Below are positions 4,106 through 62,135 of a stretch of DNA of 64,000 bases, one piece after another; positions within the stretch are counted from its first letter, which is position 1, and each line of letters starts with the position of its first letter. The position numbers were made by a program, and so were the translations under genes. This stretch comes from Chiloscyllium plagiosum (lineage: Eukaryota), in NCBI RefSeq assembly GCF_004010195.1, contig NC_057718.1, positions 102,985,566 through 103,049,565 of the forward strand, written 5' to 3'. A model generated the notes under the pieces. It was not told the DNA's origin. It ran no database searches and saw only the letters and a program-made list of their open reading frames with translations.

Positions 4106-4229
4106 TGACTTTTCCCTATGTTTATGACTTTGAATATCAGAGGGATTATGGTTAGATTTTCCCTTGTTGGACATGGTCGCTTCCTGGCTTTTGTGTGGAT
4201 ATTACTTGCCACTTGTCAGCCCCAGCCTG

Positions 4230-4907: not shown

Positions 4908-5025
4908 AATCATAGAATCCCTAAAGTGTGGAAGCAGGCCATTCAGCCCGTCGAGTCAACACCGACCCTCCAAAAAGCATCCCACCCAGACCCACCCCCT
5001 CTACCCTCATCCATCCCTGTAACCC
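4908..5025 (-). mobile_element. HE1-type SINE, 3' fragment
   Basis: Matches the 3' part of the full copy at 59677-59988. Confidence 0.75.
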
Positions 5026-5190
5026 TCCCTTGTCGGAGGTGAGCTGCCTTCTTGAATTGTTGCAGTCCATGTGCTGTAGGGAAGCAGTTCCTGGATCTTG
5101 ACCCAGAGACACTGAAGGAATGATGATATATTTCCAAGTCAGGGTGGAGAGTGGCTTAGAGAGGAACTTCCAGATGGCGGTGTTCCCTGT

Positions 5191-5322
5191 ATTCCTGATG
5201 AAGGGCTTTTGCCCGAAATGTCAATTTTACGGCTCCTCAGATGCTGCTTGAACTGCTGTGCTTTTCCAGCACCACTCTAATCTAGACTCTGGTTTCCAGC
5301 ATCTGCAAGTCATTGTTTTTAC
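5191..5322 (+). mobile_element. Penelope-like terminal fragment (family A) starting at a hammerhead core
   Basis: attc-CTGATGA-a-GGGC-tttt-GCCC-GAAA-t-GTC at 5191-5222, followed by the family tail (gatgctgc...ttttccagca...ccagcatctgca). Confidence 0.8.
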
Positions 5323-5467
5323 CATGTTTCTGCTGTCCTTGTCCTTCTGATTTTGATGTTGACAACTGGGTTGCCTTCAAAATGAAACACTTCTAGCATT
5401 TCCTGCATCATATTAATTATCTCTTTCGGAAATAACTAGCCTCCTCCTAACGTTAACATCTTCCCAA

Positions 5468-8400: not shown

Positions 8401-8935
8401 CCTCCTGCCTTCTAGCTTCCAACTTAACTCCCGACATTCTCTTTTCAGGTCCTCATCCCTTTCCCTATCTATGTCATTGGTACCAATGTGTACCATAACT
8501 TTTGGGTGCTCTCCCACTTCCTTAGGAAGGTAGATATGGATAGAGGTCAAAGAGAGAGAAAACATTAGCACAGACAATGGACTGGATAACGATCTGGTTG
8601 GGAGGGTGAATAGCTGTTAATGTTAGTTGCTAATAATGGGTTGTGTGTAATAGCAGACTATGTGATAACAAGGCCTGGTAAAAGGGGCTTGGGGTAAGGA
8701 CATGGGAGAAGCTCAAGCCTTGAAGTTATTGAACTCGATATTGAGTCCTGAAAGCTGCGGGGTCCCCAAGTGGAATATTAGATGCTGTGCTTCTGGTTCG
8801 CCCTGAGCTTCGCTGAAGCACTGAAGCAAGCCTGAGGCAAGCCTGAGGCAGAGAGGTTGGCCTGGGAACAGGGTGGGCTGTTAGAGTGGCAGGCACCTGA
8901 AAGCTCAGGGTCTTTTTAGTGGATGGAACATATTC
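5468..8935 (-). mobile_element. Penelope-like element 3' part (family C: GIY-YIG C-terminus plus terminal repeat), split by a CR1 insertion
   Basis: 8722-8835 on minus translates SGLLQCFSEAQGEPEAQHLIFHLGTPQLSGLNIEFNNF, resembling the C-terminus of the PLE GIY-YIG domain. Segments 8530-8620 and 5468-5665 join into the uninterrupted copy at 31630-31940. Hammerhead-like core at 5567-5606. Confidence 0.75.
5668..8522 (-). mobile_element. CR1 LINE with ORF1 SGNH esterase remnant, endonuclease and partly deleted RT
   Basis: VMVHIGTNDI...DRLHLNWRG (esterase); ETW, GDFNFPNIDW, DSDHN (endonuclease); KFADD, LEYCIQFWSPHYRKD (RT). Middle of RT is missing near 6560-6600; (ttctatg)-type tail near 5670. 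Confidence 0.93.
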
Positions 8936-9859
8936 CTAGTATACAAAAAGAAAGGAAGGAGGGAAAAAGGTTACAGAATCATTGGGATCACCAAGAATTT
9001 CCATTGAACTGACAGCAATGACTTAGCTGGAGACCTACGTACTCTTTTATCATCGCGGTGTTTGGGAAAACCCGAGGAAGTAGAGGCTTTGGTGTCCTTC
9101 CTTGACTGTAGCTTTGATATGGACGCAACTGCAGATACTGGAAATACGAAAGAGTAGAGAAACAGAAAGCGCTGCCATCACGAAGCAGGCAACATCCACA
9201 GGTAAAGGAGACAATTTCTGACGTCACCTCCTTGTCAAACGGTCCACAGTCAGGAGCACCAAGTGCTCTGTGCCATCCACTGATGCTGTCTGACCTGATG
9301 GGTACCCCCAGTATTTTCCCACATAGAGCTGCAATGAGATTCCGAAACTGGACAGAGGGAATTAGAAGGGCAAGAAGAAAAGAAAACACATCATTCTATA
9401 CTTAAGGACAGAGGAATTAGAATCAGAGGTGGACCATTCAGCCTCTGGAGACCAACAGATAGTCTCTTTGGGTTTCAAACTCCACACTCCCATCTACCTC
9501 CAGTGACCTCGGAGTCACCTGCTGACCAAGAATCCATCCAGCTCCACCTTAGAAATATTCAATGACCTCACCTCCAGTACCTACAGAGGCACACAGTACT
9601 CTGACAAAAAAAAATCCACTCATTTCTATTTTAAACGAGTGAATGCAGTTCTTTTAAATAGTGTCCCCTAGTTCTGAACTCCCCCCTCCCGCAACAAAGA
9701 AGAAACATCCTTTCCACACTCACCCTGACAAGACCATTCCGGATGTTATACACTTACATCAAATCAAACCCCACACTTTGAAACACATCTGCTCTGGTCA
9801 AGCCACCACACCAAGTCATCCCCACAAGTCTTACTTTAACATCTAACTCCATTCTACTC

Positions 9860-10190
9860 CCACAGCATAGTGGCTCATTGGTTAGTGCTGCTGCCTCACA
9901 GCGGCAGGGACCTGGGTTTGATTCCAGCCTAAGGTGACTGTCTGTGTGGAGTTTGCACATTCTCCCCGTGTCTGCGTGGGTTTGCTCCGGTTTTGTCCTA
10001 CACTCCAAATATATGCAGGTCAGGGTGAATTGGCTTTGCTAAATTGTCCACAGTGTTGAGGGGTATGTAGGCTAGGTGCATTAGTCAGAAGTTAAATGTA
10101 GGGGAATGGGTCTGGTTGGGCTACTCTTCAGAGGGTCGGTGTGGACTTGTTGGGCCGAAGGGACTGTTTCCACACTGTAGGGATTCAATC
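9860..10190 (+). mobile_element. HE1-type V-SINE
   Basis: tRNA-like head with A and B boxes, V-domain tgtgtggagtttgcacattctccccgtgtctgcgtgggttt, CR1-like tail. Confidence 0.88.
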
Positions 10191-11184
10191 AAACTAACTG
10201 TTGAATCCTAAACAATCATAAAGGTAACAGAGGGACAGTGGCCAAGCTGCCTGTGATAGGCTAGTCTGGGTCCCAGTGACCGATGACCCAATGGGATGAA
10301 TAACATTTCACTGTAGTCAGTATGCTATCTTTTGCTCTACTATTTTTCCTTCAATGCATTTCAGAATGCAGTTTATCTGGAGGCACACTAGCGATATTCC
10401 TGAGACACCATGGATTGGCTCATGATGAAGAGGCAATTTGGTAAGTGGTAGACCACAACTAATACCAAAAGGTTGATTTATGACGATAATTAAGCATTCA
10501 ATCTGGAATTGCAACTGTACAGCACATTCAGCTGTCTCATCCACGACTCCTAGTCTCGCATCTTATCACGTTTTGAAATCAAAGACAATGAGAAGGACTG
10601 AGCTGGACCACATCTTTCTCATTGTTTTTGCTGCTTTTTGTACTACAGCTGGTGAAAGGGGACAGTAAGGGAACTGACGCACACCCATGTACCCTGTGCC
10701 CCAGGCTCAGAGGATGCATTAACCGTCTACCTGCCGACATTTCGAAGGCTGTTTCTGGTCAATAGGTCAAACCCAAGCAGGAACGCACCAACCACCCCAG
10801 GGATGTCCTGATGACTGAAGAGAGGTCTGAACAAAACTTCAACAAGCCCAAAATACTGTGGTCACTAGAAATCTGAAACAAGAACAGAAAATGCTAGAAA
10901 GAATCAATAGATCAGACAGTTTTCATGGGAAAGAAACATGGTGAGATGGGTGGTATTTAATATCAGCTGAGGTGAGGGATTTTAATTGAGCAGTATTGCC
11001 TTGGAGAGACAATGGGTGAGTGTGCTATTGCTAGAATGTTAATCCAGAGACCCTGGTAATGGTCTGAGAACCCAGGTTCAAATCCTGCCAGGGCAGATGG
11101 TGGAATTTTAATCCAATAAAAATCTGGAATTAAGAATTTAATTACAGCCGTTAAATCATTGTCAGGAAAACCTCATCTGGTTCA

Positions 11185-16916: not shown

Positions 16917-18070
16917 ATGGCTTTTAAAATTGCTAAAGAGGTTCTGGGATTTGAAGATGATTCTCAAATTTGCCAAGAAAGTTTAGAAGGAAAGAAAAAG
17001 ACCATACTTCTAGAATTAGCAAATAAATTAGATCGGGGTTTAATCAAAGACAAAAGTAAAGCTGAAATTGTAAGGGAGTTACTCAACCGCTTAGGCCTGT
17101 CAAAGAAACAGACAAGTGCAGTAGAGGTAGAAAAACTTAAATTACAATTGAGGAAAATGGAGTTAGAAAATAAACAAAGAGAGAGGAAAGAGAGAAAGAA
17201 AGAGAGAAGAGAGAGAGAGGATAAAGAGAGAGAAGGTTCTTAGCTGAGCAAGGAGAGAGAGAAGAATAGGAGAGACAAAAAGAGAGAGAATTTGAACTTG
17301 AGAAGTTGCGACTTAGTCAGCAAATTCAAGTTAACAGGATGGAGATTAAAAGAGAACTTAGTGATATATACAAATATGTCAAAATCCTGCCACATTTCGA
17401 TGAGAAAGATGTTGAAGCCTTCTTTATTTCATTTGAAAACTTGGCTAGGCAGATGGAGAGGTCCAAGGATTTATGGGTAATGCTAGTTTAGACTAAACTG
17501 GTAGACAGAGCTAGTGAGGCATTTGCCGCATTGTCAGGTGAGGTGTCAAGAGATTATGAAGAGGTTAAACAGGCTATTTTAAGTGCTTATGAATTGGTAC
17601 CAGAAGCATATAGACTGCGGTTCAGAAACACAAAGAAGGAACCAGGTCAGACTTATGTTGAGTTTGAAAGAAGTAAACATAATCATTTTGATCAATGGGT
17701 GCATGCTTTGAAAATAGATAGGACCTTTTAGGCTCTAAGAGAGATTATTCTGCAGGAGGAGTTTAAAAACTCACTTCCAGAGATGGTAAGAATTCATATG
17801 GAGGAACAGAAAGTTCAGGAAGTGAGAAGGGCAGCAGAATTAGCAGGTGAGTACATGTTGGTGCATAAGACAAGCTTCCGGCCAGAATTTCATCCTGTGA
17901 GGGACAGAAGTTGGGAGAAGGGGAGACTCTACTCTACAAAACCAAGAGTAGAGAGCACTGGTAATAACTTACCACAGGATTAAGAAAAAGCCCAAGAGGG
18001 TGGACTGGAGGTGAAAGGCCTCAGGTGTTTACACTGTGGTAAAGTGAGACACACAAAGTCACAGTGCTGG
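16917..18070 (+). pseudogene. gag: gag remnant with coiled-coil, SCAN-like capsid and zinc knuckle
   Basis: LPHFDEKDVEAFFISFE, AYELVPEAYRLRFR, EEFKNSLPEMVR, CLHCGKVRHTKSQC across frameshifted ORFs. Confidence 0.85.
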
Positions 18071-18239
18071 TCGTTAAAGAAAGGCACTGTGGGAAAAGAT
18101 GTGGTAAAAGAAGCTAAGCCTGTGGCATTAGTGAAGGTAGTAAAGGAGACCCCAAGAAGAGCTGAGAAGCTGCAGGACAGTGCACAGCCTAGGCAGGGTC
18201 TGGATATGGAGTTAGTACCTGATCTCTCCAAAGAATTCA

Positions 18240-18560
18240 CCTCTGTGGGTAAAGTTTACTCAGAAAGAATGGAGGGAGAAGGACAAGAAGTTGTCATTTT
18301 GAGAGATACAGGTTCTAACCAGTGGCTGATAGTAAGGGATGAGTGCATATGCACTCTTTCTGATCTGTTACCTGAGAGTGTGGTAATTTTTGGGATAGAT
18401 GGACAGAAATTTAGCTTTCCCCGTTGTAAGATCAGGTTGGAGTGCCAACTCAAGATTGGGGAAGTTACAGTGGGAGTGATTGACAGAGGGTCAGTTCCAG
18501 GAATACTGTTGGTTCTTGGGAACGATTTAGCAGGATCCAAGGTGGGAGTGACACCCCTTG
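18240..18560 (+). pseudogene. Retropepsin (aspartic protease) remnant
   Basis: VVILRDTGS...LVLGNDL in ORF 18011-18850. Confidence 0.85.
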
Positions 18561-18899
18561 TTGTGGAGAAGCTCAATGAAGACCAAGAAACTGAGGAGTT
18601 AAAACACTATCATAAGTCATGGCACAAAATGAAAACTAAAGAGAAAGATGAAGGAGCTGAGGTTCAGTTAGTGGATACCCTGTTTGATGTAATACTGCAG
18701 GAAAAACCTGAACAGGCAGAGGGTCAGGCAGAAGTGTTTACTCCTGAAAGGCTAAGGGATTTGCAACAGAAAGACAAGATGATAAAAGGTGAATGCATAC
18801 TCCAAAAAGGAGGTAGAGAATATTCCAGAGGGTTAATATCTGAAAGATAGAATCCTAAGGTGGAAATGGAGACCACGGCAGGTTAGTGCAGAGGAGAAA

Positions 18900-19965
18900 T
18901 GGGCCGAAGTGCACCAGATTGTGTTGCCGGTAGCATAGCGACAGGAAGTGTTACAGGTAACACATAAACTATCAGTAGGAGGTCACCTAGGGGTAGGAAA
19001 GGCTCAGGCTAAGGTATAAATACATTTTTATTGGACTGGCATGCACAAGTATGTGGTTAATATTGCTGTTCGTGTCACGCATGCCAAATGGTAGGTAAGC
19101 CACAGGCAATAATAAAACCAGCCCCTTTGTTGCCAATTCCTGCATTTGAAGAATCTTTCACACGGGTTATAATTGATTGTGTAGGTCCCCTCCCGAGAAC
19201 TAAAAGTGGGAACCAGTATTTATTAACGATAATGGATGGGTCTACCAGATTTCCGGAGGCAATTCCATTAGGGAGTATCAAGGCAAAAAGGGTGATAGAG
19301 GAGTTAGTAGCTTTCTTCACACGGTATGGGCTACCCAGAGAGATTCAGTCTGACCAAGGGTCAAATTTTACTGCGAGGCTGTTTAAGGAGGTTATGGATA
19401 CCTTAGGTATACAGTACTTTAAACCCAGGGAGCTTTAGAAAGGTGGCATCAGACCTTGGAGACCATGTTGACAACATACTGCAGGATTACCCAAATGATT
19501 GGGATAAAGGGATCCCATTCATAATGTTTGCCATTAGAGACGCCCCAAACTAATGCACTCAGTTCACTTCCTTTGAGTTAATATTCGGGCATGAAGTGAG
19601 AGGCCCTTTGAAATTATTGAAAGAAAAATTGACAGGACCAAAGTCAGAGATCTCATACTTAGATAATGTATTGGAAGTGAGGGAGAGATTAACTCGGGAA
19701 GGTGAATTAGCTAAACATCCCCTAAAGAGGGCACAGTGTAGAATAAAGAAGGTGGCAGAATAAAAGTTCTGAGACTCGGATGTTTCCCGAAGGGATGACG
19801 TGTTAGTACTGTAACCAGTGAAAGGATTTTCCTTCAAAGCCAGGTTTAGTGATCCCTAACAAACTGAGAAAAAGTTGAGTCAGGTGAGCTATCTAGTAAA
19901 GATACCAGATAGGAAAAAAAGGTATCGGGTATGTCATGTGAACATGTTGAAACTGTATAATACCA
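18900..19965 (+). pseudogene. Integrase remnant (HHCC zinc finger, DDE core, C-terminal module)
   Basis: GGHLG...CHAC, IDCVGPLPRTKSGNQYLLTIMD, EIQSDQGSNF, ERWHQTL, VCHVNMLK. Confidence 0.9.
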
Positions 19966-20131
19966 GAGAGAAAGAACTGGAGAAACAGGTGTTAGTTACT
20001 GCCCCGCAGGGTGACGAATCAAATCCAGATGATGTGGATCTTGATGTGCCTCAAAATAGATTAAAAAATGCAGAGGTCCTTGAGGAGTGGGATAGGTTAG
20101 TAAGCTATCTGTCTCAGGAGTACAGACACAG

Positions 20132-21476
20132 TTGAAAGATTTCTTACCGCAATATAAGGACATACGTAACAATCAGATGGGGAGGACTAATGCTATTGTT
20201 CATGAAATAGACGTGGGGAATACTGCTCCGATAAAACAACACCCCTATCGGCTTAATCCTCTCAAAGCCAGACAGGTCCAGATGGAGCTGGAGGCCATGC
20301 TCGATGAGGACATGATCGAACCAAGCCAGAGTCAGTGGAGTTCGCCGATCGCCTTAGTTCCCAAACCGGCTGTGACTCAACGATTCTGCGTGGATTATCG
20401 GAAGGTTAACGCCGTTACAAAATCAGACTTAGATCCAATTCCTAGATTGGAGGACTGTATCAAGAAAGTCAGACAAGCCAGTTACATCACCAAGTTGGAC
20501 TTAATGCGTGGTTACTGGCAGGTACCTTTATCAAAGTCAGCGAAAGAAATTTATGCATTTGTAACCTCAAATGGGCTATGTCAGTTTAAAGTGATGCCCT
20601 TTGGAATGAAAAACACACTCACCACATTCCAAAGCCTCATGAACAGAGTTGTGGCTGGGTTAACAAACTGTGCAGTCTGTTTGGACTATGTAGTGATCGT
20701 TAGTAAATCCTGGAAAGATCACATGGTACAGTTGGCAGAGCTCTTTGAACAACTACGAGAAGCAAAACTAGTGATAAACTTAAACAAAATGGAATTCACA
20801 AAGGCAGAAGTGACATTCTTGGGACATAATATCGGTCATGGAAGGTTGGCTCCATGGAACGCAAAGACAAAGGCCATCCAGGAATTTCCGTGACCAACCT
20901 CGAAGAAAGAGGTGCTTCGATTCTTTGGACTCTGTGGATGCCATCAAAAGTTTGTTCCAAACTTCAGCAGTATAGTGGCACCGTTAACCAATTTGCTGAA
21001 GAACAACAGTTTCGGCGGATAGAACAATACCAGGAGCCATTCGGCCATTTGAAAGCCACATTAACCACCAAACCATTTTAGCTACACCAAACTTTTCAAA
21101 CCATTTTAAAGTTGCCATTGATGCTAGTGACATTGGAGTAGGAGCTGTACTCCTACAGGAAGAGGAGGTTGGGATTGAACTGCCAGGTGGTTACTGTTCA
21201 AAGAAGATCAACACCCACCAGAGGAAATACTCCACAATTGACAAAGAACTATTGAGTTTGGCCCTGGCCTTACAACATTTTAACGTGTATGTCACAAACG
21301 ATGTGTTGGAGACGGTCGTGTACATGGATCACAATCCACTTACATTCTTAGAACGCTTTAAAGACATGAATATGAGACTATTTCATTGGAATCTTATGTT
21401 ACAGACTCTCAATTTAAAAATCGTACATGTTGCAAGTCATAAGAATGTAATCGCAGATGCGTTACCGCGGATTTAA
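20132..21476 (+). pseudogene. Reverse transcriptase and RNase H remnant
   Basis: PIKQHPYR, RFCVDYRKVN, LDLMRGYWQV, VMPFGMKN, degenerate YLDD (CLDY); DASDIGVGAVL, DHNPL, NVIADAL. Confidence 0.92.
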
Positions 21477-22596: not shown

Positions 22597-22768
22597 ATCA
22601 AAAATCAGAAATTGCTGGAAAAGCTCAGCAGGTCTGGCAGCATCTGTGCAGAAAAATCAGAGTTAACATTTTAGGTCAAGTGACCCTTCTTCAGATCTGA
22701 GATTTTCCAGCAATTTCTACTTTTGTTTCTGATTTACAGCATCTGCAGTTCTCTCAGTTTTTATTTCG
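22597..22768. mobile_element. Penelope-like family C fragments in inverted arrangement
   Basis: Minus arm with ctgaaga-a-gggtc-actt-gacct-aaaa-tgtt (22661-22696) followed by a plus-strand tail. Confidence 0.75.
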
Positions 22769-31940: not shown

Positions 31941-34229
31941 TGAATGCAAGCCTTTCTCAATTCTCTTTAAGATTTTGTTTTGGTGGGGGAGATGAGCCGC
32001 TCTGACTATAAATTTTACATCTTCACTTCAAGTTGTTGATAAGGTGACAGCCTCCCTGCAGATCAGTACTGTCAACCAGTAGTTTCACATTACAGACAAG
32101 AAAGCTACATTTGGCAATTTTCCTTACAGATGGAAAATGGTTTTCTGAAGATCTATCCCAAATGTTTAAGATTTAATCCATCAAAGTGCATGGGAATTAG
32201 GAGTAGATGTTCTGCTTAAATTCTATTCATGGCAATGGACCCCTTGGGTCTAGGAGGTGAATAACCTTCGAAATTGGACATTAATGCCAATCCCTGCCAT
32301 TATAATTTTGCCAGTTACTGGAAAACGGGACACGTGTTATGTCATCTCAATTGATCCAAAGGTATCCCAATCCTGATGAGTCTTGTGGTGAAGTGGTAGT
32401 GTACTTGCCCTGAACAAGGAGAGCTCACGTTCAAGTCTGGGGGTGTGCAATAGCATTTCTGAACATGGTGATTAGGGGGAAAATATTTCAGATATTGAGT
32501 CAAATCCACAATGAGACAGAAACAAGACAGGCAGCTTAAACCTGATGGGGGCAGTAGTCTGCAGTCTATGAGGATACAATCTTCCCATTCCAATCAACAA
32601 CTCAGCTCTTAAAAACAGAATCTCACAGGTAGGACAATTACTTCTCAATAGAATATCGACAGATTATCACAGATATAAGTTGCTGGGAACTCAGAGGGTA
32701 TATCAGAGAAACAGGACAAAGTGCTGCGGCCACTGTTTAATGATGTATGAAAAACCAGCTAGCAAAGTGCACCATTAAGAATAGCTAAACCCACTACATC
32801 ACAAAGACTTGATGAAATATTTATGCCATTTTGGACAATTTTGTTGCTGCTCAGTTGCAAACAGCCAGCGGAGTCAGACTCCCTCGGGAGCTGAAAACCA
32901 AGGGGGAGCTGACAAAAGCAAAGGCGAAATTCAGCAAACAATTGACGGCCGCTTTCAACTGAAGGTTGAAAGATGTTGTCATTAATTGCACGTTGCATCT
33001 AAACATCGCCTGTCTAGCGCCCAGCCTTGCTTCCAGACATGAAAGGCCCCTTCTGATTTTCCGGCATTGTTAAAGGAATTTTGAACATCAGGAAGCAGTA
33101 ACAGCAGCGATAAGACTGTCATGTTTTAATTGGACAGCAGGCAACCTAACACAATCGAGAAAGTCATGCAACACAGAAGTAATGTTCACATCTGTGAATA
33201 TGAAGGTATCAGTCACTGGAGTATAACCCTGTGAGTATGCTTTCATTGACATTTTAGTTAGAATCCATCACGTCCCCTGTCTTACAACTTTTACAACCAT
33301 AAAATGAGGTATCTCACTTGTTGTCATCTCCCTTCATTTACTTCAGCATTTCCAAATCATTTTAAGCCCTCATTCCACATGGAACTAAATTCTTACCACA
33401 TTAATGTCTCATTAAACATCCTGTTTGCATCTGCAGGAGAACAGATTCATTTTCTTTTCGTACCTATGAGTTAGAAGTGGGAGTAGGCCATTCAGCCCAT
33501 CGAGCCTGCTCCTCCTTTGTATAAGATCATGGTTGGTCTGATTGTGACCCCACCCCCACAGGATGTTAACTGGACAAAAAATACAGGCAGTCCATAAAAG
33601 CTACTGCCTATCCGGAACTTGCAAATTCATCATATCCAACCTTTTACATGTTGACAGCTCACATCCAACTTGATCCACCAGCCCTCCATCTGCCATGATC
33701 TTGTTCACTTACTCTGTTTAAATTCCCTTGAAGTCTCTTTGCATCGTCCTCACAACCTACACTTCAAACCAGTCATTAGATCTTTAAATACTACCCATTG
33801 TCAGTCCATCATCAAGACTTGTAATGTGTTTTTCCAATCCACCACAGCCCAACATCCTCCTCATACCTTCGCAATTGCCTTTGCATTGATTTATGACCCC
33901 AGTTTCAGACTGAAGTACATCTTTTTCTAAGGTAATCGAAAATTCAGTCATATTATGATCACTATTTCCTAAAGGTGCTTAGGAAGGCTGCCACAGCTCT
34001 GGATACAGAGAATATTTTCCAGGATGATGCCAGGTATGAGAGGGTTCAGTTCTGCTTTTCGAAAGTGGGAGGATATTTCCTTTAATGGGGAAGAATAAAA
34101 TTCAGGGACACAATTAAACAATAAGAGGACCTGCCATGATCTTGTTCACTTACTCTGTTTAAATCCCCTTGAAGTCTCTTTGCATCGTCCTCACAACCTA
34201 CACTTCAAACCAGTCATTAGATCTTTAAA

Positions 34230-34442
34230 GCTGGAAATGTGTTGCTGGAAAAGCGCAGCAGATCAGGCAGCATCCAGGGAACAGGAGAATCGACGTTTCG
34301 GGCATAAGCCCTTCTTCCTGAAGAAGGGCTTATGCCTGAAACGTCGATTCTCCTGTTCCCTGGATGCTGCCTGACCTGCTGCGCTTTTCCAGCAACACAT
34401 TTCCAGCTCTGATCTCCAGCATCTGCAGACCTCACTTTCTCC
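34230..34442. mobile_element. Young palindromic Penelope-like insertion (family A) with hammerhead core
   Basis: Inverted arms 34229-34317 and 34320-34408 (87/89); TSD tcattagatctttaaa at 34214-34229 and 34443-34458. Confidence 0.9.
34314..34349 (+). ncRNA. Minimal hammerhead ribozyme motif (family A)
   Basis: CUGAAGA-A-GGGC-uuau-GCCU-GAAA-C-GUC at 34318-34345; helix I weak. Confidence 0.65.
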
Positions 34443-36207
34443 TCATTAGATCTTTAAATACTACCCATTGTCAGTCCATCATCAAGACTTGTAATGTGGT
34501 TTTCCAATCCACCACAGCCCAACATCCTCCTCATACCTTCGCAATTGCCTTTGCATTGATTTATGACCCCAGTTTCAGACTGAAGTACATCTTTTTCTAA
34601 GGTAATCGAAAATTCAGTCATATTATGATCACTATTTCCTAAAGGTGCTTAGGAAGGCTGCCACAGCTCTGGATACAGAGAATATTTTCCAGGATGATGC
34701 CAGGTATGAGAGGGTTCAGTTCTGCTTTTCGAAAGTGGGAGGATATTTCCTTTAATGGGGAAGAATAAAATTCAGGGACACAATTAAACAATAAGAGGAC
34801 TCCTGCTAATGTGGTGATGAAGAAAACTTTTTTTTCTCTTGGAGTGTCGTTGCTCTATGGAATTCTCTTCCCCAGACAGCAGGGAGACTGGATCATTGAG
34901 TGTATTACCAGCTAAATGAGAGAGTTTCTGATCAATGAGGGAGTTGAGAGTTAGAGGGAATGATCAGGAAAGTGGAGCTGAGGCCACAACCTGATCAGCT
35001 GTTGATGGAGCAGGCAGGAAGGGCTGAATAGTCTCCTACTGTTCCGAATTTCAATGTCCCTATGTTCTCCTTGGAGGAGGGAGAAATCATCGATGTGTCA
35101 GAAGGGTTTTTCATGGAGAAGATAGGGAGAAACTGCTCCCTCCGACAAGTCAGTCCATTACCAAAGATTTAAAATAATTGGCAAAAGAGGGGAAATGAGG
35201 AGTTGTTTCTTCAGAGAGGGATTGCTAACACCCGGAATGTTGCAAATGAAACGGCAGTGGAAGCAGATTCCACAGGGACTTTCAAAAGGCAGCTGAATGT
35301 GTATCGCAGAGCACTAATGTTTAGGATTGTAGGGTAAAAACTAAACTGTGAGATTGGAGTAGACAGTTTTTTCATCGAGCTGGTCAATGGACGGTGGGCC
35401 AAGTGGCCTCCTTCTGTGTTTTAAAAATCTTTGTTTCAGTAATTCGAGATCAACTGCACTTCATAAAAATGCAGTGTGGAGTTGCACCAGTTAAATCTGA
35501 AGAAGTCCTAAGGCAGATGAATATAACTCGCTCTGCAATGTTCTTGCCATCAACAACTTTATTCCTTGTTTTCAACAGCATTGGAACAGCGTAATGACCC
35601 GTTGCATACGATATTGAAGGCAATAGTTGCAGAATAGTGGCCCAAGGGTTATAACAGCAAAAAGCAGTGCATCATCATATTAAAATAAAATGAAGAGCTG
35701 CATCGTCCTGGTAAAGCTGGCATGGATGGTGGGTGACTGTATATGGGCCAGAGGTAATGTCACGATCACTGTCAGTGTCATTCATGTTTTTACAGTGTTC
35801 CAGCCATCAAAGAGGGTCCACCCCATTTACACTCTTCATTGATTGAGCAATTCCTTTTCTGTTTAAGGACTAGAGCAAACCATTTGAAAATAATCATGCC
35901 ATTGATGACCTTGTTGATTTTTGCGCATTCTCTCATAAACAGTGACAACAATGAAGATGAATGAACATGAACATCGACAGTAGAAACAATAGAACCATGG
36001 AAACTGCTGATTTAATCTTCCTGATTGTGCAAGTTGCTCCCTGACCTGCTCTGCCTGAATGAATACCTCTTTAAGGTGGAGGCCATGGTTTGAGGTTTAA
36101 AGGTGGAATTCTACACCTTGCTAGTATCCAACAGTATGAAAAGATAGCTACACAATGGTTGTGGGTGTATTACAGCTGGGAAGGAAGTGAAATGTCATGA
36201 GTTCACT

Positions 36208-40689: not shown

Positions 40690-41000
40690 TTAGAGTAGAG
40701 TCATAGAGATGTACAGCATGGAAACAGACCCATTGGTCCAACTTGGTAAAAACAAGGGCTGCAGATGCTGGAAACCAGAGTCTAGGTGAGAGTGGTGCTG
40801 GAAAAGCACAGCAGGTCAGGCAGCATCCGAGGAGCAGGAAAACCGATGTTTCGGGCAGAAGCCCTTCATCAGGAATACAGCTTTAGTCCAACCTGTCCAT
40901 GCCGACCAGATTTCCCAATCCAATCTAGTCCCACCTGCCAGCACCTGGCCCCTATCCCTCCAAACCCTTCCTATCCATGTACCCATCCAAATGCCTTTTA
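40690..41000 (-). mobile_element. CR1 3' fragment interrupted by a family A Penelope-like insert (40746-40876)
   Basis: CR1 tail on both sides; insert on minus begins attc-CTGATGA-a-GGGC-ttct-GCCC-GAAA-c-ATC. Confidence 0.85.
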
Positions 41001-42447: not shown

Positions 42448-43299
42448 GAAAGTAAAATGCGACACCATGTCACTTAAGGTGACTTTAGGGCAAATGGCTA
42501 GAAGCTTGATTGGAAATGTAGGTTTTAAGGAGAGGACAGAGAGTTGCAGAGAGATGTAGTGAGGAACATCCAGACCTCGGGGCCTAGGCAGCTGAACACA
42601 TCAATGGTGGAGTGATAAAAATCAACGGTATTCAAGAGGCCAGAATTAGAAAACCATAAATATTTCAGTGAAATATGGGGCTAGAGATGGTTACAGTGGT
42701 GGATAGAGCAAGGGTCATGGAAGGATGGGATAACGAGAAGGTAAGTTTCATCGCCTTGAGATTAACACTGAAATGGCCAAACCCCATCACAGCATTTCTC
42801 TGGTGACGTTAAATGAAGAAGTTTGCAAAGGTAACCTAAGAAATCTGAATGCTTGGAATTTCCAGGAAAATCACAGTCTAACCAGAGCGAAGGAATTGAA
42901 TTATGCTATTTGAGTTTCTGAGGAAATTTGCACATAGCTGTTTTAATGCAAAACATCTCGATGAAGAAATTTCCTGAATCATTTACGTAATTTCCTGAAC
43001 CCATTTACAGATTAATACAGCTCTGTGAACTAACTCAGAAGTGTACTTCCTACATTTAATCCATTCTTAATGGTTATAAATGAATGCTCAAGATTTCAAA
43101 CATTGCAGGATCCAAAGTTATGAGATCCTGTTGTTTTTCTAGTGATTTTCCAAAGCAATTTGGAAAAATTATTTTTTCTTACTGTATTTTAAATGTCCTT
43201 CTAAGGGTCTGGTAAGAGAAAATGTACCAAAATTGCACTTTAGTTTTAAACATGTTGTCTATTAATGATAAGTTTGCTGGTTTCAAACTTTAATTTGTA

Positions 43300-43516
43300 T
43301 AAAAGCAAAATGCAGCCGGTACTGGAGATCTGAAAGAAACGCAGAAATTGCTGGAGAAACTCAGCAGGTCTGGCAGTGTCTGTGGAGACAGAAACAGAGT
43401 TGACGTTTCAAATCCTGTATGACCCTTCCTCAGAACTGTTCTGGCCAAAACTCATATTGGACACAAAGTGTTAACTCTGTTTGTCTCTCCTGCTGACTTT
43501 CTCCAGCAATTTCTGT
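43300..43516. mobile_element. Penelope-like family C inverted pair
   Basis: Minus arm 43300-43437, then plus arm 43438-43516. Confidence 0.78.
43398..43437 (-). ncRNA. Minimal type I hammerhead ribozyme motif (family C)
   Basis: AGUU-CUGAGGA-A-GGGUC-auacag-GAUUU-GAAA-C-GUC-AACU; helix I AGUU/AACU perfect, stem II with G.U pairs. Confidence 0.7.
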
Positions 43517-49172: not shown

Positions 49173-50514
49173 TTTGAATTATGGAGATTTCAAAAGGACT
49201 GGCATGAGCTCTCCATTTTTGTGAGTCATCTTATGTTTCTAAGACATATTGAAACACACTACTGACACATGGAGTATGATGGGGATCTCATCACTAACCC
49301 TCATGGACTATGAGAGTCCCACTCCACCAATCCCCATGCTGACCTTTCGCTCATGAAAAGGCAGATTTGCTGCCACCATCTTCCTCTTAAGTTGTGGCCT
49401 ACTGCATGTGCACTGTCTTGTGCAGCTTTTGTCTTAATCAAGCTGCAGTTTATTGTCTGATAGGAACCAGATCCAAGTTACACGAGAGTGTGGTAGACAT
49501 TTTTCGTAAGACAATAGAGAGATCTACAACATGGCTCTTTCATCTTCAAGATCCAAAGATGTTCTTCCATCCAAATGCCTATGACATCATCACATTGGGT
49601 GGAGCTTTATGTACTCAACATTAACCCTTTCAGAATCAAACACATTAACCCTTTCAGAACCAAACAGATGAACTCTTTTCAGAATCAAAAATTGTGTGCA
49701 ATATTATTTTCAAAACATTTGACTTATGTATTGTGAAGAGGTTGAGTTTGTGTTCACCTCACTGCATTGCTAGCATAAGGGTAACTAATCCATCCCCCCA
49801 GGATCAGGCTGTGCAGGACTCAATCCCAAAGATAAAGTGAGTTCCCTGGTTCATTGCATGTTGGGTAAAGAGATCCCCATTCTACAAACCTGACTATCAC
49901 TTCCTTCTGATTGGCTTACACTGTTCTCCAAGATTCACATTGTATCATGTGATATTTGTATCACAGAAACAGGCCATTCAACTGGACTGATCCATGCCAG
50001 CATTTATGTTCAATCCAGTCTCATCGTACCCCTCCATATCTCACTCTATCTACATGCTACAGGGCAGTAGCTCACCAACTCTCCTTATTTACTACCACTC
50101 AAATCTCTGCCATTGAGAAGGACAAGAGTACTGGATACATAGGGACAACATGATGAGAGGAGACCTCATTAAAACAGAGACTTGAGGAGTTACTGCCCTG
50201 TATCTTGTTAATGGAGTGCGACATAGCAGGTTACAATGAGTGTCCATAAACACTGGCATGGAGCAGTCCAGTTGCATGGTCTGTGTCTGTGATATAAGTA
50301 ACACATAGGGACTACAATTTCCTCTCCAAGTCACTCACCATCCTGACTTAGAAACATACTGTCATTCCTTCACTGGCGCTAGGTCTAAATCCAGGTACTC
50401 TGGGTGTCCCTACTCCCAAAGACTGCAGTAGTTCAAGAAGTCAGCTCACCACCACCTGCTCTATGTGGGCTGTATACATACCATAGACAATCCTTCTTAC
50501 CTGCTCATAGGAAA

Positions 50515-53431: not shown

Positions 53432-53606
53432 CCACGAGGAGGTGCTGGTGTTGAACTGGGGTGGGCAAAGACAGAAGTCACACGACACCAGGATATAGTC
53501 CACAAAGGAGCAGCGCTCTGAAAGCTTGTGATTTTAAGCAAGCCTGCTGTCATGTAACTTCTGTCTTTGTCTGCCCCAGTCCAATACCAGCACTTGCATG
53601 TCATGA
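53432..53606. mobile_element. Penelope-like family B inverted pair
   Basis: Minus arm 53432-53502; plus arm starts aaggagcagcgctctgaaagcttgtg (hammerhead lacking CUGA). Confidence 0.72.
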
Positions 53607-54499: not shown

Positions 54500-57480
54500 T
54501 AGTATGGCAGACAAATCTGTATCCTGGTTGTTCAAAAAGGGCCACCATGTCCTCTAAAAATTCTCAGTTTTGTGGTGTACCATATTTGTGAGAAATTCCA
54601 AGGGGATATGCTCCATAACAATCTTATGCCAACCCGACAGGCCCTGGGGATTTTTGGACACCCAACCTAATGAGATATTCTTCCTTGCACTGAAAGTGAG
54701 GATGTTGAAAAGTTACTTACAGGCAACACACCCTTACACTCAAAGTCCTCTCCATTGCACCCGTCACAGCGCTCCAATGTGTTTGAAGCCTACCACAGGA
54801 CCAGAGACAATGGGTAAGAGTGCCCGTACAGCCCGTACAGACCTTGCACTTGGGATATGTTGAAGATACCCCTGGTTTAAATTTTGACAAATGGTCCAGA
54901 GCCAAATGGACCCTGCGGAGAATCTTAAACTAGTAGAAAGTGAGGACTGCAGATGCTGGAGATCAGAGTTGACAGTGAAAAGCACAGCAGGTCAGGTAGC
55001 ATCCGAGGTGCAGGAGAATCGATGTTTCAAGCACAGGCCTGTCATCAGGAATAATGAAGAGTTTCTACCTGAAGAGCTTATACCTCTATGTCAGATTTGT
55101 AGGGATCAGTCAAAAGTGTAGTCTTTTTTTGAATAAAGTCCCTAACTTGAAAAAAAAATCCCTGTTAGATTATTCGTATTTCCGTGCTAACTGATCATAG
55201 GACTGATCATTGTGTCTCCCTCAAATAAATCACCCCTGCAAGACACACCCCTAGCTGCCCAACATTTGAACCCTGAATCTATCATCCCTGGTTGAAAACC
55301 TGGCATACCCACTATAGGTGTAAATAAAGATGCTTTGCCAATATTGCATTCCCTCTGCCAAATTGCCCTCCATGCTTTAACAGTCTGGGTAACTATTGGG
55401 TTATGGGAATATTCCCTAACTCTCCTCATTTTGTCTAGAAACAGCAAGCTGGTAAGGGAGTAACTTTGACATCTAACCATATTGAAAGAGGGTCCCCGAA
55501 GGACCAATCACTCACTTAAGATAAAGCAAGCTTAGTTGGTAGCTTTTAATGTCTGGGACGTCCACTCCCCCCAGTCTGTGAGGCAACTGCAGTTTGACTA
55601 ATTTAATGATGGGCCACTTACGATGCCAAATAAAGGAGCTGAACCAACCATTCAGTCTCCTGAATGTTTGCTTATCGAAAATCAGGGGGAGCATCCATAT
55701 CGGGTATAACAAACGGGGGAGAATATTCATCTTAATAATCACTATCTGACCCAACCACGAGACTGGAAGCGCCTGTCATCTCTAAAGGTCTTGTTTGAAT
55801 TTGTCGAATAATTGAACAAATTAGCTTTGAACAATCGATCCAGAACTGGAGTGATGAACATGCCCAAATAACAACCCCCCCCCCCCCCCGTGACCACTTA
55901 AATGGGAATTGATATTCGCCCTCAAGACCCAGCTCCTTCGTAAGACCACCCATGGGTATAGCCTCTAATTTTGCAAAATTAATCTTGTCCCCCGAAAAGG
56001 CGCCAAACGCACAGATGCATTGTATGAGGCGAGGCACTGAAACTGCTGGATTTGACAAAAAAATTAGGACATCGTCCATATACAGTGAAATCGTATGTGC
56101 TTTTGACCCCACTTCTGGAGCTGATATATTGGGATCCCTACTAATGGCTTCCACCAATGGTTCAATCACCAGCCATGGTGAAAGGGAAACAGCCCTGCTG
56201 GCTGCCCCTAAAAATGTTAAAATTGCTTGATCATACCCCAGTGGAGATGACCACAGCAAGAGGGTCACTGTTGAGAACCTTTACCCACCTTATAAAGGCT
56301 TTGCCCAAGCAAAACCACTGTAGAGTATAGAACAGGTACGGCCACTCAACTGAGTCAAGTGTCTTCTCTGCATCTTGAGAAATCACCAGTCCCTGTGTTG
56401 ACTGTTGTTGACATACTTGAATTACGTTAAGCGGTCTCCTAACATTATTGGAGAATCTGCGGCCCCTTATGAAGCCCGTCTGGTCCTCTTTAACAATAGA
56501 AGGTAACACAGTCTCCAGCCTTAATGCAAGAGTCTTGGAGAGGACTTCAAAGTCCACATTTAAGAGTGAGATGGGTCTGTACGAAGCACAGTCCTCCGGG
56601 ACCTTCCCTTTTTAAAGAATAAGCAAAATATTGACTTCTCTTACAGATGCAGGATATAATCACGACTGTATAGTCATTAAACATATTGAGCATCGGGCCT
56701 GATAATATGTTTATAAATTCCTTATAGAATTCGCTGGGAAGTCCATCAGGACCAGGCGCCTTCCCACTCTGAAGCTGCTTCACAGCCTCCTGCACCTCTT
56801 GCTCTGATAAGGGGGCATTGAGAAAGGACTCTTGTCAGGGGTCACGCCCGAGAGCTCCAGATCCTTATAAAAGGATTCCATTTTGGCCCGTCCCTCCTTA
56901 CAATCCTCAGATTGGAATAATTCAGAGTAAAATCTCAGGAATGCCGCATTAATCTTTTTGGAATCACATGTTAGGTTCCCAGACCCTTCCCTAATTGCCG
57001 TAATGGCTTGAGGGGCGCTCCTTTTCCTGGCGAGATACTCTAGGTACTTGCCAGGTCTGTCACCATGCTCATATAACCTCTGTCTTGCAAAAGTAAGCTC
57101 CTTCTTGCTGTCTCCACGAGCACAGAATTCAATGCAGACTGTAGCGCCGTAATCCTCTGTAGCTTGACCAACGAGGCCCTGTCAAAGTAAGCCTGCTCGG
57201 CTGCCTTCAACCGTGCTTCGAGTTGTTGCTGCTTGCCCTTCTGCCACTTCCTACAGGCAGAGTAGGAAATAACTAACCCCCTGGCATAGACTTTGGCAGT
57301 TTCTCAAAGGACGGACAGGCTACTAACCAAGCCTGAGTTAATATCTCGGAACGCCTGAAATTCCCTCGAGAAATACTCCACAAGCCTATTATTCTTAAGG
57401 ATAAAGGGATCCATTTGACAGTGCCTCGGGCCCACTGTAACATCCTAAATCTTAACCAACAGGTACACTGGAGCATGACC
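54500..57480 (-). pseudogene. L1 ORF2 remnant (end of endonuclease, RT, cysteine-rich C-terminus)
   Basis: HAPVY, GKAPGPDGLPSEFYK, EDQTGFIRGR, QDAEK, SLYMDDVL, KINFAK, PKCK...LTHCLWSC. Confidence 0.9.
54934..55053 (-). mobile_element. Family A Penelope-like insert within the L1
   Basis: Minus strand begins attc-ctgatga-caggcctgtgctt-gaaa-catc; tail matches 34345-34442. Confidence 0.75.
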
Positions 57481-57514
57481 AACATGTCTATTTGCACATA
57501 CTAAATCGTTCAGA

Positions 57515-58327
57515 TTAGATTAATTTGTCCACCAAGTCTCTTGCCTTCTCGGACGTGTCAACGAGATGTACGGATCCATCTAAGGTGATCCGAAGCACTG
57601 CCGGATACCTCAGAGAGTACTGGATCCCAAGCTCCCTCAGTCTTCTCTTGACACCATCATAGGTGTTTTGTTTCTGCATCACCGCCGCTGAGCGGTCCTG
57701 GAAGAACATGATCTTGGAGCCCTCGTAAAGAAGGGCCTTCGGATCCTTCCCCTGGATTCTGGAAACTTCCACGATTCTCTCCTTATCTCTAAAGTGATGA
57801 AACAGAACCAGGAGAGGACGAGGATGTTGACCCAGACCTGACCTCCATACCGTGACCCGGTGAACCCTCTCAATCTTCAAGCCTCTCACGCCAGCGTCCA
57901 AGTTAAGGAATTTCAGCAACCAGTCCTCAATAAGTTCCACCAGCCACTCACCTTCCTGACCCTCCGGCAGACCGACAATCCTAATATTTCTTCTCTTGCC
58001 CCTGTTCTCAACGTCATGCACTTGATCATGCAAACTACGGACCTGCCTCCCCAGGGCTTGGATCCTATCCTTGGAGGAACTGGCATCAGCTTCCACCACT
58101 GTGACCCTGTGTTCTAACTCATCGGTCCTCTTCTCCAGGTCTCCCAACTGCAGTTCATGCTTCTGCAGTATGATAGATATTGGACCAGCTTCTCCTCTAT
58201 CTGCTTCCCCAACATCATGTGAGACTTTGAGAGCTCCTTCACGAGGGGCCGGTAGGTAATTGAGTCCGAGGATCCTGCAGGCTGGGCCGCTGTCCGCCTC
58301 GGACGCTCCTCCTCCCTTCTTTGGCAT
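57515..58327 (-). CDS. L1 ORF1p (coiled-coil, RRM, CTD), probably non-functional
   Basis: 270-aa ORF with heptads, then DVENRGKRRNIRIVGLPE, IERVHR, PRPLLV.FH.FRDKE, YSLRYPA.L. Confidence 0.85.
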   Translation of the reverse strand: MPKKGGGASEADSGPACRILGLNYLPAPREGALKVSHDVGEADRGEAGPISIILQKHELQLGDLEKRTDELEHRVTVVEADASSSKDRIQALGRQVRSLHDQVHDVENRGKRRNIRIVGLPEGQEGEWLVELIEDWLLKFLNLDAGVRGLKIERVHRVTVWRSGLGQHPRPLLVLFHHFRDKERIVEVSRIQGKDPKALLYEGSKIMFFQDRSAAVMQKQNTYDGVKRRLRELGIQYSLRYPAVLRITLDGSVHLVDTSEKARDLVDKLI

Positions 58328-59676
58328 CCCTGCATGACGAAAACCAAGGCAAGTTGCTTCTGACAGTTTCCTGGGACTCCACGACCTTTCCAGAGAGCCA
58401 GAATATTGCGGTGGTCTGGGTAGGGCAGGTCAGGACTATCTCCCGCTTACGATGCGGTGCGGAGCTCTGAAACACAATCTTCCTAGATCGCCGCCATCTT
58501 GCAACCCCCTGAAATCTTGTGATTTTAAATAAACGGTTGGACTATAACCTGGTGTTATGTGACTGTTGACTTAATTAGTAAGAGAATCAAGAGTTATAAG
58601 GAAATGACAGGAAACGGTATTGATGATGATCAGCTCAGCCACAATCTCATTGAATGGCAGCGCAGACGCGATGGGCTGAATGGCCTACTGCTGCTTCTCT
58701 GCCTTTTGATTTTATGGACTGGTGCTGAACATTACATAATCATCAGCGGACATCCCACTTCTGAACCTGTGCTGAGACCTGAGTCATATCACAGGGCAAT
58801 TTATTGTAAGATTTCCAGATCTTGCTTGACTGAGTTAGCAGGTACAGAAGAGATAGAGTGCCCTCTGCAAAAAGGTAAAGCAGCAGGGTGTTTATTGTAA
58901 CAACTGGCCCCACTGAATCCAAATGGCAGGACTGAAATCAATACAGTAGTTAACTCTTCTTCAGTAAAAGAACAGGAAAACCCAAGCGAGAATAATAGAT
59001 ATGTAGTGGTGAGCTACAGAGTGGAACAGATCATTTGGGATCTGTTATAAGGCCACAGTGCACATCTTGAAAAACCAGCCAGAAAAGAAAGCAGTGTGAC
59101 GTTCCACTGTAACTTTTATTAGCCGTCAGCGATACCATTCCAGGCTAACAGTAAGCACATTATAATGGCCATAAAATAAAAATGGACACAATTTTAAAAT
59201 GTAATAAATAACAGGCACATTTGCAGCAGATTAATCTCAGGCTTCTCCAGATATTCGTAAAATATTCACTTAGGATTTATGATAATAAGGAAGAAAGTGT
59301 TGAGTGGCCCACTGTGTTTTACTGCTTGCCATCTTTGCAGCATAATACAACATAGTCAAGAGCAAAAGCTTTTCAAAAGCATATGCCACCGGCTCACTCC
59401 GACTTGCACCATCTTTTTATGATTTAACATACTCTGGTTTATGGTATTACTTTCATCTTCTATCATTGGAATAACCATTGGAATAACCATTGGCAACAGT
59501 TCCACGAAATCAGGGAGATTTCAAGGCCTAGAATTTGCTGTCAAAATTAACAGTGAGGCCAGCAACGCCGAGGGAGATTGGCTGATCTCTAGAAATCGGA
59601 AAGGCGGCTGGATTGGTTGTACTGTTCTGCTGTTAACTTTGTGCAAACAACATCAAACTGTTTGCCTCCCTGTTGT

Positions 59677-61715: not shown

Positions 61716-61964
61716 AGGTTCGACCTGAGCTGTACACAGACTTCTTCCTGTGACCCTGTGCGTTCTCTTCCAATAACCACCTATTTCAAATTGGAATGCT
61801 TTAAATGTCCCTGCCTCCACTACCCTCTCACATGGCGCATTTCAGAACCTAGCTGCTTGCTGCGTGAAAAGTATTTCCCTCACTTCAATCTTGTTTCTTT
61901 TATTGATTACGTTAAACCTGCACTGTCTCAGCCTTGATCCTTTCACAAGTGAGAAGAGTTTCTA

Positions 61965-62135
61965 AGCAGGACCTGCAGATAGAGAAACAGTGTTAACATT
62001 TCAAGTCCATTACAACTTCTTTGGAAGTTCTGAAGAAATCATACTAGACTCAAAACGTTAACTCTGTTTCTCTCTCCAAAGATGTTGCTGAGCTCCTCCA
62101 AGTTCCTCTGCGTTTCTATTAGATTTCCAGCACCC
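61965..62135. mobile_element. Penelope-like family C inverted pair
   Basis: Plus arm agtt-ctgaaga...gactc-aaaa-cgtt-aact (62026-62063), preceded by an inverted arm. Confidence 0.7.

Follow-up and report, generated by a model that had tools for sequence, protein, structure and literature searches.

Complex insertions of EN+ Penelope-like elements (PLEs) are the closest described counterparts of the locus presented here. Among the examples of Arkhipova et al. (2013, PMC3846280) there is an inverted pLTR with a 31-bp tail and a 9-bp TSD, and the insertions discussed by Craig et al. (2021, PMC8557442) include such with a 30-40-bp tail on a single end. For PAc, the Poseidon element of Anolis carolinensis, it is reported that both strands of an AT-rich target are cut and extended, that two RT start sites bound the tail and that hammerhead (HHR) cleavage is not needed (Frangieh et al. 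2024, PMC11167929). Two further systems are relevant. By definition, non-LTR retrozymes consist of directly repeated units in tandem, every one of which contains a complete type I HHR (bioRxiv 2026.07.22.740005), and for false duplications in genome assemblies gaps are among the marks listed by Ko et al. (2022, PMC9516828).

Fold-back insertion is an ordinary event for the Penelope-like class with an anatomy known since 2013 and earlier, and as fold-backs of this kind probably number in the thousands, a single locus is of little weight. Inverted insertions of this class nevertheless lack a mechanism, and an insertion together with its empty allele provides an exact before/after pair that records cut and start sites. 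Here, we analyze such a case at positions 34214-34458 of a 64,000-nt stretch from Chiloscyllium plagiosum (the window). In our judgement it is likely that the terminal module of a Penelope-like family present in very many copies was inserted here recently, head-to-head and dead on arrival, and has not become fixed. This module is composed of a hammerhead motif, about 90 nt and then a tail.

Anatomy of the insert

The insert comprises 213 bp (34230-34442) and is dominated by two inverted arms (34229-34317 and 34320-34408) that are complementary in 87 of 89 positions, the mismatched pairs being 34262/34375 and 34300/34337, with a 2-nt spacer (34318-34319) in between. The left arm is a minus-strand, tail-less copy of the element end without C3-U4 of the hammerhead core, and it extends outward as far as about +90 from C3. 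The right arm is the plus-strand sense copy of the pLTR-like element end and continues into a 34-bp tail (34409-34442, plus strand) that is found at this end only and stops at the common 3' end of the family. A perfect 16-bp TSD (34214-34229 and 34443-34458) encloses the whole, and the window contains this 16-mer at three positions and no others (33773, 34214 and 34443). Arms, spacer, tail and TSD had been recognized in an earlier sequence-only reading and were reproduced by re-alignment. Base 34229 is at the same time the final base of the left TSD and the first base of the arm; similarly, base 34443 opens the right TSD and is also the commonest 3' end of the family among the loose ends listed.

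The axis of symmetry indeed falls at the start of the hammerhead core, as had been noticed before: the plus arm reads CUGAAGA at 34318-34324 and the minus arm has AG instead of CU. Since positions 34315-34317 fit both the native upstream letters of the element and the mirror image of 34320-34322, the axis is a microhomology junction (34315-34322) with three nucleotides on each side of the spacer, situated at the 5' edge of the core and supported by the loose-end consensus before 34315 and by the window relatives. A palindrome of this size is not due to chance because the next-longest inverted repeat in the window (spacer of at most 10, at most 2 mismatches) has 18 bp, three mononucleotide shuffles contain 14-16 bp, and the fold z-scores are -27 as RNA and -28 as DNA, neither of them equalled by any of 200 shuffles. 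On thermodynamic grounds a cruciform as well as hairpin RNA from the arms would be possible. Both arm differences are C-to-T in the element sense, one of them at a CpG, and the arms have rare letters in common, e.g., C at 34403 where 16,863 of 20,359 first-mate reads show T.

The hammerhead motif

On the plus strand a minimal type-I hammerhead motif extends over 34318-34347, with the core at 34318-34324, an unpaired A at 34325, stem II at 34326-34337, GAAA at 34338-34341 and a predicted cut after 34345. This arm shows the boxes CUGANGA and GAAA with NUH, the unpaired base after A9 and the palindromic 15.2-16.2 pair of min-HHRs. The 10.1-11.1 pair is G.U (34326/34337) and not G-C, with C in 17,064 of 19,479 first-mate reads, and helix I of this copy has 2 pairs only, as opposed to the 4-5 bp expected of min-HHRs. 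Across 12 motifs of the window 86.7% of 45 stem II cells are paired, a value reached by 4 of 500 shuffles and compared with 11-56% in slid controls, which suggests that stem II was kept across the window copies. However, pairs changed on both sides are equalled in 303 of 500 shuffles and further pair types in 487, and two family C rows in this comparison look out of register. No Rfam model matched the window at its gathering score; over 34200-34470 an E-value of at most 10 admitted 21 matches, none of them a hammerhead and all below the gathering score. Most of these were miRNA models, which fit any long hairpin, and a miRNA identity was rejected.

The designation ribozyme-bearing can be retained for the motif only, the computed stem II pair probability in the insert transcript being 0.000000. 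Owing to the G.U closing pair, the 2-bp helix I and the burial in the hairpin, the motif, real as it is, is probably dead in this copy, i.e. a passenger that very probably does not cut. Ribozyme cleavage was also discarded as cause of the truncation: the sense arm begins some 30 nt on the 5' side of the cut, and among the 15 joints listed (of 698) there is none with a restart at the predicted site 34345/6.

The neighbouring empty site

Alignment reveals a tandem repeat of 441 bp: when the 229 bp of insert plus TSD are taken out of 34131-34800, the remainder is identical to 33690-34130 except for 2 mismatches. Copy 1 (33690-34130) contains the uninterrupted 16-bp target at 33773-33788 (75% A+T), and copy 2 (34131-34800) the insertion. 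Contigs from two samples of the same species (S1 and S6) and from one relative served for comparison, and in all three sets a single contig crosses the locus as one empty unit (S1 record 1, S6 record 8, relative record 15). The S1 contig has no difference to 33560-33829 and then leads directly into 34500-34900. Both SNPs that separate the repeat copies also vary among these single-copy contigs: at 33724 S1 has T while S6 and the relative have C, and at 33829/34499 S1 and the relative have T while S6 has G. Copy 2 agrees with S6 at 34165 and 34499. It follows from the single-copy empty contigs and from the SNPs varying between them that this is a young insertion which has not reached fixation, and that the repeat probably represents two alleles. 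The youth postulated earlier is supported by three empty contigs out of three.

We consider it probable that the assembly set two alleles side by side, copy 1 being the sister allele, in which case the assembled animal would be heterozygous. Haplotype-specific letters in the copies and a single-copy locus in the other data are what a false duplication of this type leaves behind. Of the empty site reported nearby, the uninterrupted 16-mer stands, but it is no independent paralogous target and probably belongs to a false tandem duplication. That the duplication is genuine and private, having brought an empty and a filled haplotype together, perhaps after breakage of the palindrome, is unlikely. 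Such an origin would agree with the missing N gap between the copies and with site 34730, which is mosaic and at odds with a simple tree of two alleles (copy 2 has the letter of S1, not of S6), and a real junction contig could explain the unassigned S1 depth of 2.75 in the junction bin 34100-34144. De Bruijn contigs, moreover, drop alleles and can collapse and so hide tandem copies. On the other hand there is one continuous single-copy path in all three contig sets, both inter-copy SNPs equal letters of other haplotypes, the junction is without direct microhomology, and its bin has a depth of 0 in S6 (5.7 in the relative, 0 in raw reads at less than 1x coverage). Extra S1 depth occurs in bins 34100-34144 and 34460-34504 and is ambiguous as to junction contigs.

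That the palindrome itself is a fold-back artefact of sequencing or assembly is very improbable. Its location at a probable assembly fault would fit, as would the fact that among the 24 pieces listed of about 190,000 there is no read or contig that spans the repeat junction or one of the two insertion junctions. Such an artefact, however, would not produce a perfect TSD matching an independently observed empty site, a 3' end typical of the family or the two C-to-T differences between the arms, and similar axes are crossed by reads of other copies, with five further fold-backs being present in the window.

The insertion and its empty allele show that the family moved recently in this genome, and this clean, non-fixed Penelope-type insertion is usable as population marker. 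At the same time the adjoining empty site, being probably a product of assembly, is a warning that similar local duplications in this genome need read checks before interpretation.

Family and class

The family is very abundant. Its depth of 55,426 in 1,934 Mb of raw reads corresponds to 86,000-143,000, i.e. about 10^5, copies if a genome size of 3-5 Gb is assumed. Its 3' ends pile up where the tail of the insert stops (7,010, 12,821 and 5,605 raw reads with loose letters behind 34442, 34443 and 34444, respectively). Upstream of 34315 a total of 21,163 reads continue with a common consensus (agreement 0.67), and longer family copies must therefore exist. The 15 joints listed of 698 show 14 distinct restart positions of the sense arm, between 34316 and 34419. 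Insertion flanks of the family are AT-rich. TSD-like repeats measure 16 bp without mismatch at the insert and 15, 13, 12 and 10 bp with 1, 2, 1 and 1 mismatches at four window relatives; no convincing repeat was detected by the TSD scan at eight other element sites of the window (near 5k, 55k, 31k, 22k, 62k, 4k and 53k, and 43k in a sense-only scan).

The locus thus displays a head-to-head inverted, 5'-truncated copy, a 34-bp one-sided tail and a TSD of variable length at AT-rich sites. By analogy with this already published anatomy (PMC3846280, PMC8557442), and because TSD-like repeats vary between 10 and 16 bp and the inner junctions vary too, its assignment as Penelope-type inverted, truncated terminal repeat, and not as MITE, is supported. 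The same conclusion had been drawn from the sequence-only reading, and the tabulation of TSD lengths and inversion breakpoints in window relatives and reads, which was recommended there, gave variable values for both and neither fixed TIRs nor a constant short TSD. A DNA transposon with long TIRs, be it a MITE or of another type, would likewise be short, non-coding, palindromic and TSD-flanked, but it is extremely improbable: the inverted repeats are not terminal as the tail follows on one side, the TSD is not constant, all three other close window relatives are single-armed, and it is the inner end that varies. That the whole palindrome is a non-autonomous mobile unit of SINE- or retrozyme-like kind, derived in one piece from a palindromic master, is also improbable. 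Copies with an axis near that of the insert may number several thousand (2,468 to 4,127 reads at 34262 or, roughly, 3,800-10,700 arms), and two window copies begin at the identical base, 8 nt before the hammerhead core. Yet the inner junctions vary widely, the six fold-backs of the window have different centres, and an 89-bp RNA hairpin of -186 kcal/mol would presumably be a poor RT template. Retrozymes in addition are direct tandem repeats by definition (bioRxiv 2026.07.22.740005), and at this locus the copies are inverted and form no tandem array.

Very likely a Penelope protein with GIY-YIG and RT domains acted in trans. Among the 198 stop-to-stop frames of at least 70 aa in the window Pfam detected RT, endonuclease-RT, RNase H and integrase fragments that belong to other retroelements, and no GIY-YIG domain. 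The family DNA had no match in viral, metagenome (2 patterns) and prokaryote genome contigs, and a comparison of the sense-arm frame with longer proteins gave two candidates, none of them scored, which is weak evidence. None of these searches connected an RT/GIY-YIG ORF with the family.

Proposed mechanism of insertion

With a slight preference we propose priming from two ends. Both target strands would be cut 16 nt apart, and both 3' ends would prime RT on element RNA. The first cDNA would start at the distal start site and give the arm with tail, the second at the proximal one and give the tail-less arm; both would halt on uncut RNA at the 5' border of the hammerhead and then be joined via the 3-nt microhomology. 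More tentatively, a dimeric RT/EN might prime both cut strands, one per RT start site, and the point of cDNA stop and joining might be marked by the folded hammerhead, still uncut, or by an RNA 5' end bordering it. If this is true, the ribozyme motif would be an insertion boundary signal and not a cutter.

Self-priming is conceivable though rather doubtful: one cDNA could have folded back at the 3-nt microhomology and served as its own template, or an antisense template could have primed itself as proposed for rotifer Penelopes. The rare letters common to both arms fit one template, the arms reach nearly the same inner point, and palindromes at inverted junctions are interpreted in this way in PMC3846280. 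Self-priming nevertheless leaves unexplained why four of seven tail-less arms, across three families, end between +88 and +93 from C3, and a loop of 2-4 nt with 3 bp would be a weak primer. Nor can it yield the copy at 22601-22762, where the long arm is tail-less and the tailed arm a stub; as the tailed arm is the shorter one, neither arm can be a copy of the other. With arms that agree in 89% over 28 nt this copy is old; it has no TSD and may represent two events.

L1-type twin priming inverts a different part of one RNA. It was rejected since here the same part of the element is doubled, and a literature search for twin priming combined with Penelope-like elements returned no title on this subject.

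Comparison with known systems

With the complex EN+ PLE insertions (PMC3846280, PMC8557442) the locus shares the head-to-head inverted copy, the one-sided tail of 30-40 bp (34 bp here), the TSD and the palindrome at the inverted junction. It differs from them in the absence of an ORF, in both arms ending at the hammerhead, in a TSD of 16 bp compared to 8-10 bp in the rotifer examples given there, and in that no autonomous partner was found. The juxtaposition of two alleles of a heterozygous stretch on one scaffold resembles the heterotype false duplication of Ko et al. (2022, PMC9516828), apart from the lack of a gap between the copies in this window. Min-HHRs of metazoan PLEs, as presented by Cervera and de la Peña (2014, PMC4209133), have the same core boxes, the unpaired base between 9 and 10.1 and the palindromic 15.2-16.2 pair, and they also occur mostly in dispersed truncated copies with some pairs on opposite strands; the insert deviates by its G.U pair at 10.1-11.1, a helix I of 2 bp, a helix II of 4 bp and the burial of the motif in an 89-bp hairpin. 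PAc (PMC11167929) offers two 3' end points a tail-length apart, an AT-rich target, a hammerhead that precedes the distal end by about 120 nt and a template apparently uncut by the ribozyme, all as in our case. PAc has its start codon inside the hammerhead, where the insert has none, and its description as given there does not model inverted copies; the idea of joining from two ends we infer from its both-strand extension.

Anatomy and age of the insertion

The 213-bp insertion at 34230-34442 is a real, young and ordinary Penelope-type fold-back. Its left arm (34229-34317, - arm) is complementary at 87 of 89 positions to the right arm (34320-34408, + arm), separated from it by a 2-nt spacer, and the right arm adjoins a 34-bp tail (34409-34442). 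A 16-bp target sequence starts at 34214 and 34443 as the flanking TSD and occurs uninterrupted at 33773. Arms, tail and TSD are therefore as the sequence-only reading had described them, and a sequence check also bore out that the + arm keeps the hammerhead core (34318-34324) and the - arm is without its first two letters. Under identical search rules the runner-up inverted repeat of the window measures 18 bp, and three shuffles gave 14-16 bp. The insert strand has a folding energy of -185.9 kcal/mol as RNA (z -27) and of -116.4 as DNA (z -28); on purely energetic grounds a cruciform or a hairpin RNA may form.

The regions 33690-34130 and 34131-34800 are one 441-bp unit present twice, differing by 229 bp (insert plus TSD) and by two mismatches (33724/34165 and 33829/34499). 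The 16-mer at 33773, previously taken as an empty site, is indeed uninterrupted but it is no free-standing second target, since it belongs to this tandem unit. The locus was compared with 4 of 22 listed sequencing runs, including three contig sets, namely S1 and S6 from two samples of this species and one from organism B, a relative. In all three sets one contig spans the locus as a single unit without insertion, which agrees with the young age proposed earlier. S1 record 1 follows 33560-33829 with 0 differences and then 34500-34900 with 1; S6 record 8 follows 33560-33772 and then 34443-34900; organism B record 15 takes the same empty path, from which it differs over 670 positions by 13 letters plus 5 gap letters.

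At the two mismatches S1 carries the letters of the empty copy 1, S6 those of the filled copy 2 and organism B one of each. Such recurrence of both SNPs among contigs is not expected from a duplication on one chromosome. The simplest reading of the single-unit empty contigs and the SNP pattern would be a heterotype false duplication, an assembly phenomenon described in PMC9516828; there is a good chance that the tandem is an artefact placing empty and filled alleles side by side. A genuine recombinant duplication is regarded as unlikely, even if the window has no N gap anywhere between the copies and site 34730 is mosaic, both of which count against false duplication. Also against false duplication, contigs of this kind can conceal alleles and tandem copies, and in S1 the bin containing the repeat junction has a depth of 2.75 left unassigned (S6 0, organism B 5.7, raw reads 0). 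Of about 190,000 pieces 24 are listed, and none of these spans either the repeat junction or a junction of the insertion. Sites 34730, 34849 (a CpG) and 34499 group S1, S6 and copy 2 in mutually incompatible ways, which could reflect recombination, recurrent change or polishing. Provided that the insertion is real, as supported by its TSD and family-typical end, either reading of the repeat makes the empty state the ancestral one and leaves the insertion unfixed in the species. The adjacent uninterrupted target probably represents the other allele.

The hammerhead motif

The motif fits minimal hammerhead criteria (core boxes, an unpaired base after A9, palindromic 15.2-16.2), the features compared being those in PMC4209133. 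For 12 window motifs stem II pairing reaches 86.7% of 45 cells, with 4 of 500 shuffles as high and slid controls at 11-56%, and two of five measures of this test failed to beat shuffles. Rfam gave no hammerhead match. At the insertion the closing pair is G.U (C in 17,064 of 19,479 first-mate reads), helix I keeps 2 pairs, and the computed stem II probability in the insert transcript is 0.000000 on either strand. A single minimal motif was inactive in vitro according to the same source (PMC4209133). Judged by these features, the copy in 34230-34442 is very unlikely to be a functional ribozyme. The earlier term "ribozyme-bearing" applies to the motif only.

The family and its relatives

X19, a raw read set of 1,934 Mb from another animal, reaches a depth of 55,426 over 34370-34414 versus 0-3 in most unique flank bins, corresponding to approximately 86,000-143,000 family copies at at least 90% likeness if a genome of 3-5 Gb is assumed. 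The copies have a common 3' end, as 7,010, 12,821 and 5,605 reads depart from the reference after 34442, 34443 and 34444, respectively, and the flanks beyond are AT-rich and unrelated. Upstream of 34315, 21,163 reads continue with a common consensus (agreement 0.67), so many family copies are longer than the one studied here. From read consensus and three window relatives, 34315-34317 are native element letters and also the mirror of 34320-34322, hence the axis is a 3-nt microhomology. Other copies have their turning point elsewhere. Among 15 joints listed of 698, the antisense arm exits at 34310-34317 in 12, a range biased by the reference end; in these 15 the sense arm resumes at 14 distinct positions (34316-34419), none of them the predicted cleavage site.

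In the window the same family has three further copies, all single-armed, and two related motif families have about ten; five of these relatives are fold-backs. Four relatives are flanked by TSD-like repeats, 15, 13, 12 and 10 bp long and each with 1-2 mismatches, compared with 16 bp at 34214/34443, and scans of eight other window elements found no convincing repeat. Counted from C3 of the core, 12 of 18 aligned arms start within -5 to +6, eight of these starts being constrained by how far the reference reaches or by the cut made at the axis; for the family with a reference to -56, 5 of 9 start in this range and 1 extends to -51. Four of seven tail-less arms, including 34229-34317, end at +88 to +93, the others at +104 (running into a TSD), +76 and +27. 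The frequent starts at the core 5' edge may arise because the folded motif halts the RT, or because an RNA has its 5' end there; an intron end was mapped to helix I in Drosophila virilis, as stated in PMC4209133.

An older fold-back at 43298-43515 is tailed on one side and flanked by a 15-bp TSD with 1 mismatch; its axis lies about 5 nt upstream of the core. In three further decayed fold-backs of hammerhead-motif families (61953-62132, 4240-4381 and 53438-53593) the long arm begins at or just inside the core 5' edge. Two single-armed copies of one subfamily, 5187-5328 (+) and 40740-40880 (-), share an identical start base 8 nt before the core and each lie within an older repeat.

Mechanism of insertion

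The anatomy, the variability of TSD and junction, the shared 3' end and the recent origin are established. A Penelope RT/GIY-YIG protein would mobilise the element in trans. As reported in PMC11167929, such a protein cleaves AT-rich DNA on both strands and extends both, using two start sites that bound the tail; it is a predicted dimer, and ribozyme cleavage is not required. Extension of both strands from two sites suggests two-ended priming, in which the tailed arm would come from one cut strand priming at the distal site and the tail-less arm from the second cut strand priming at the proximal site, and both cDNAs would meet at the 3-nt microhomology. By this analogy we lean slightly towards two-ended priming as the origin of the fold-back. 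Self-priming, where one cDNA folds back and copies itself into the mirror arm, is the interpretation given in PMC3846280 and is considered a tentative, rather doubtful alternative. Rare letters common to both arms are compatible with either process. The fold-back at 22601-22762, from a related hammerhead family, bears on two-ended priming: its long arm lacks the tail and extends to C3-1, its tailed arm is a mere stub beginning at +66, and so neither arm is a copy of the other. The 22601-22762 fold-back is old, and no TSD was found at it.

Other elements in the window

The window is rich in decayed retroelements, with RT, endonuclease-RT, RNase H and integrase pieces detected by Pfam on 198 stop-to-stop frames of at least 70 aa. 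A broken Gypsy-type element at 17732-21473 (+) has a weak SCAN match, and its integrase matches precede RT and RNase H (Pfam); such an integrase-first order occurs in Gmr1-like elements. Further pieces are a broken L1-like element at 55735-58429 (-) with RT matches and an upstream 304-aa frame without Pfam match, and a LINE piece at 7274-8616 (-) with an endonuclease match and a GDSL-esterase-like match upstream. An old imperfect palindrome at 49947-50306 (360 bp, 66%, centre of about 93 nt) is flanked by an 8-bp direct repeat, and no hammerhead core was found in it. At 1705-1976 lies a minisatellite with a 25-bp unit in 10.9 copies (83% matches).

Comparison with known systems

Pfam found no GIY-YIG domain in the 198 frames, and searches of viral, metagenome and genome contigs and of proteins for an RT/GIY-YIG ORF tied to the family gave no match. 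Neither the family nor two-ended priming was met in literature searched by title and abstract start, a coverage outside which lie most subscription journals and Repbase. Retrozymes, as characterized in bioRxiv 10.64898/2026.07.22.740005, are defined by tandem repeats, a definition from which the insertion departs. A MITE was rejected in view of the one-sided tail, TSD-like repeats of 10-16 bp and single-armed relatives; with TSD and junction variable, the initial preference for a Penelope-type inverted truncated structure is supported. According to PMC3846280 and PMC8557442, endonuclease-positive Penelope-like elements leave an inverted truncated copy together with a TSD and, on one end, a tail of 30-40 bp, all of which are present here. 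By this likeness 34230-34442 works like an endonuclease-positive Penelope-like insertion, known here from a terminal module without ORF.
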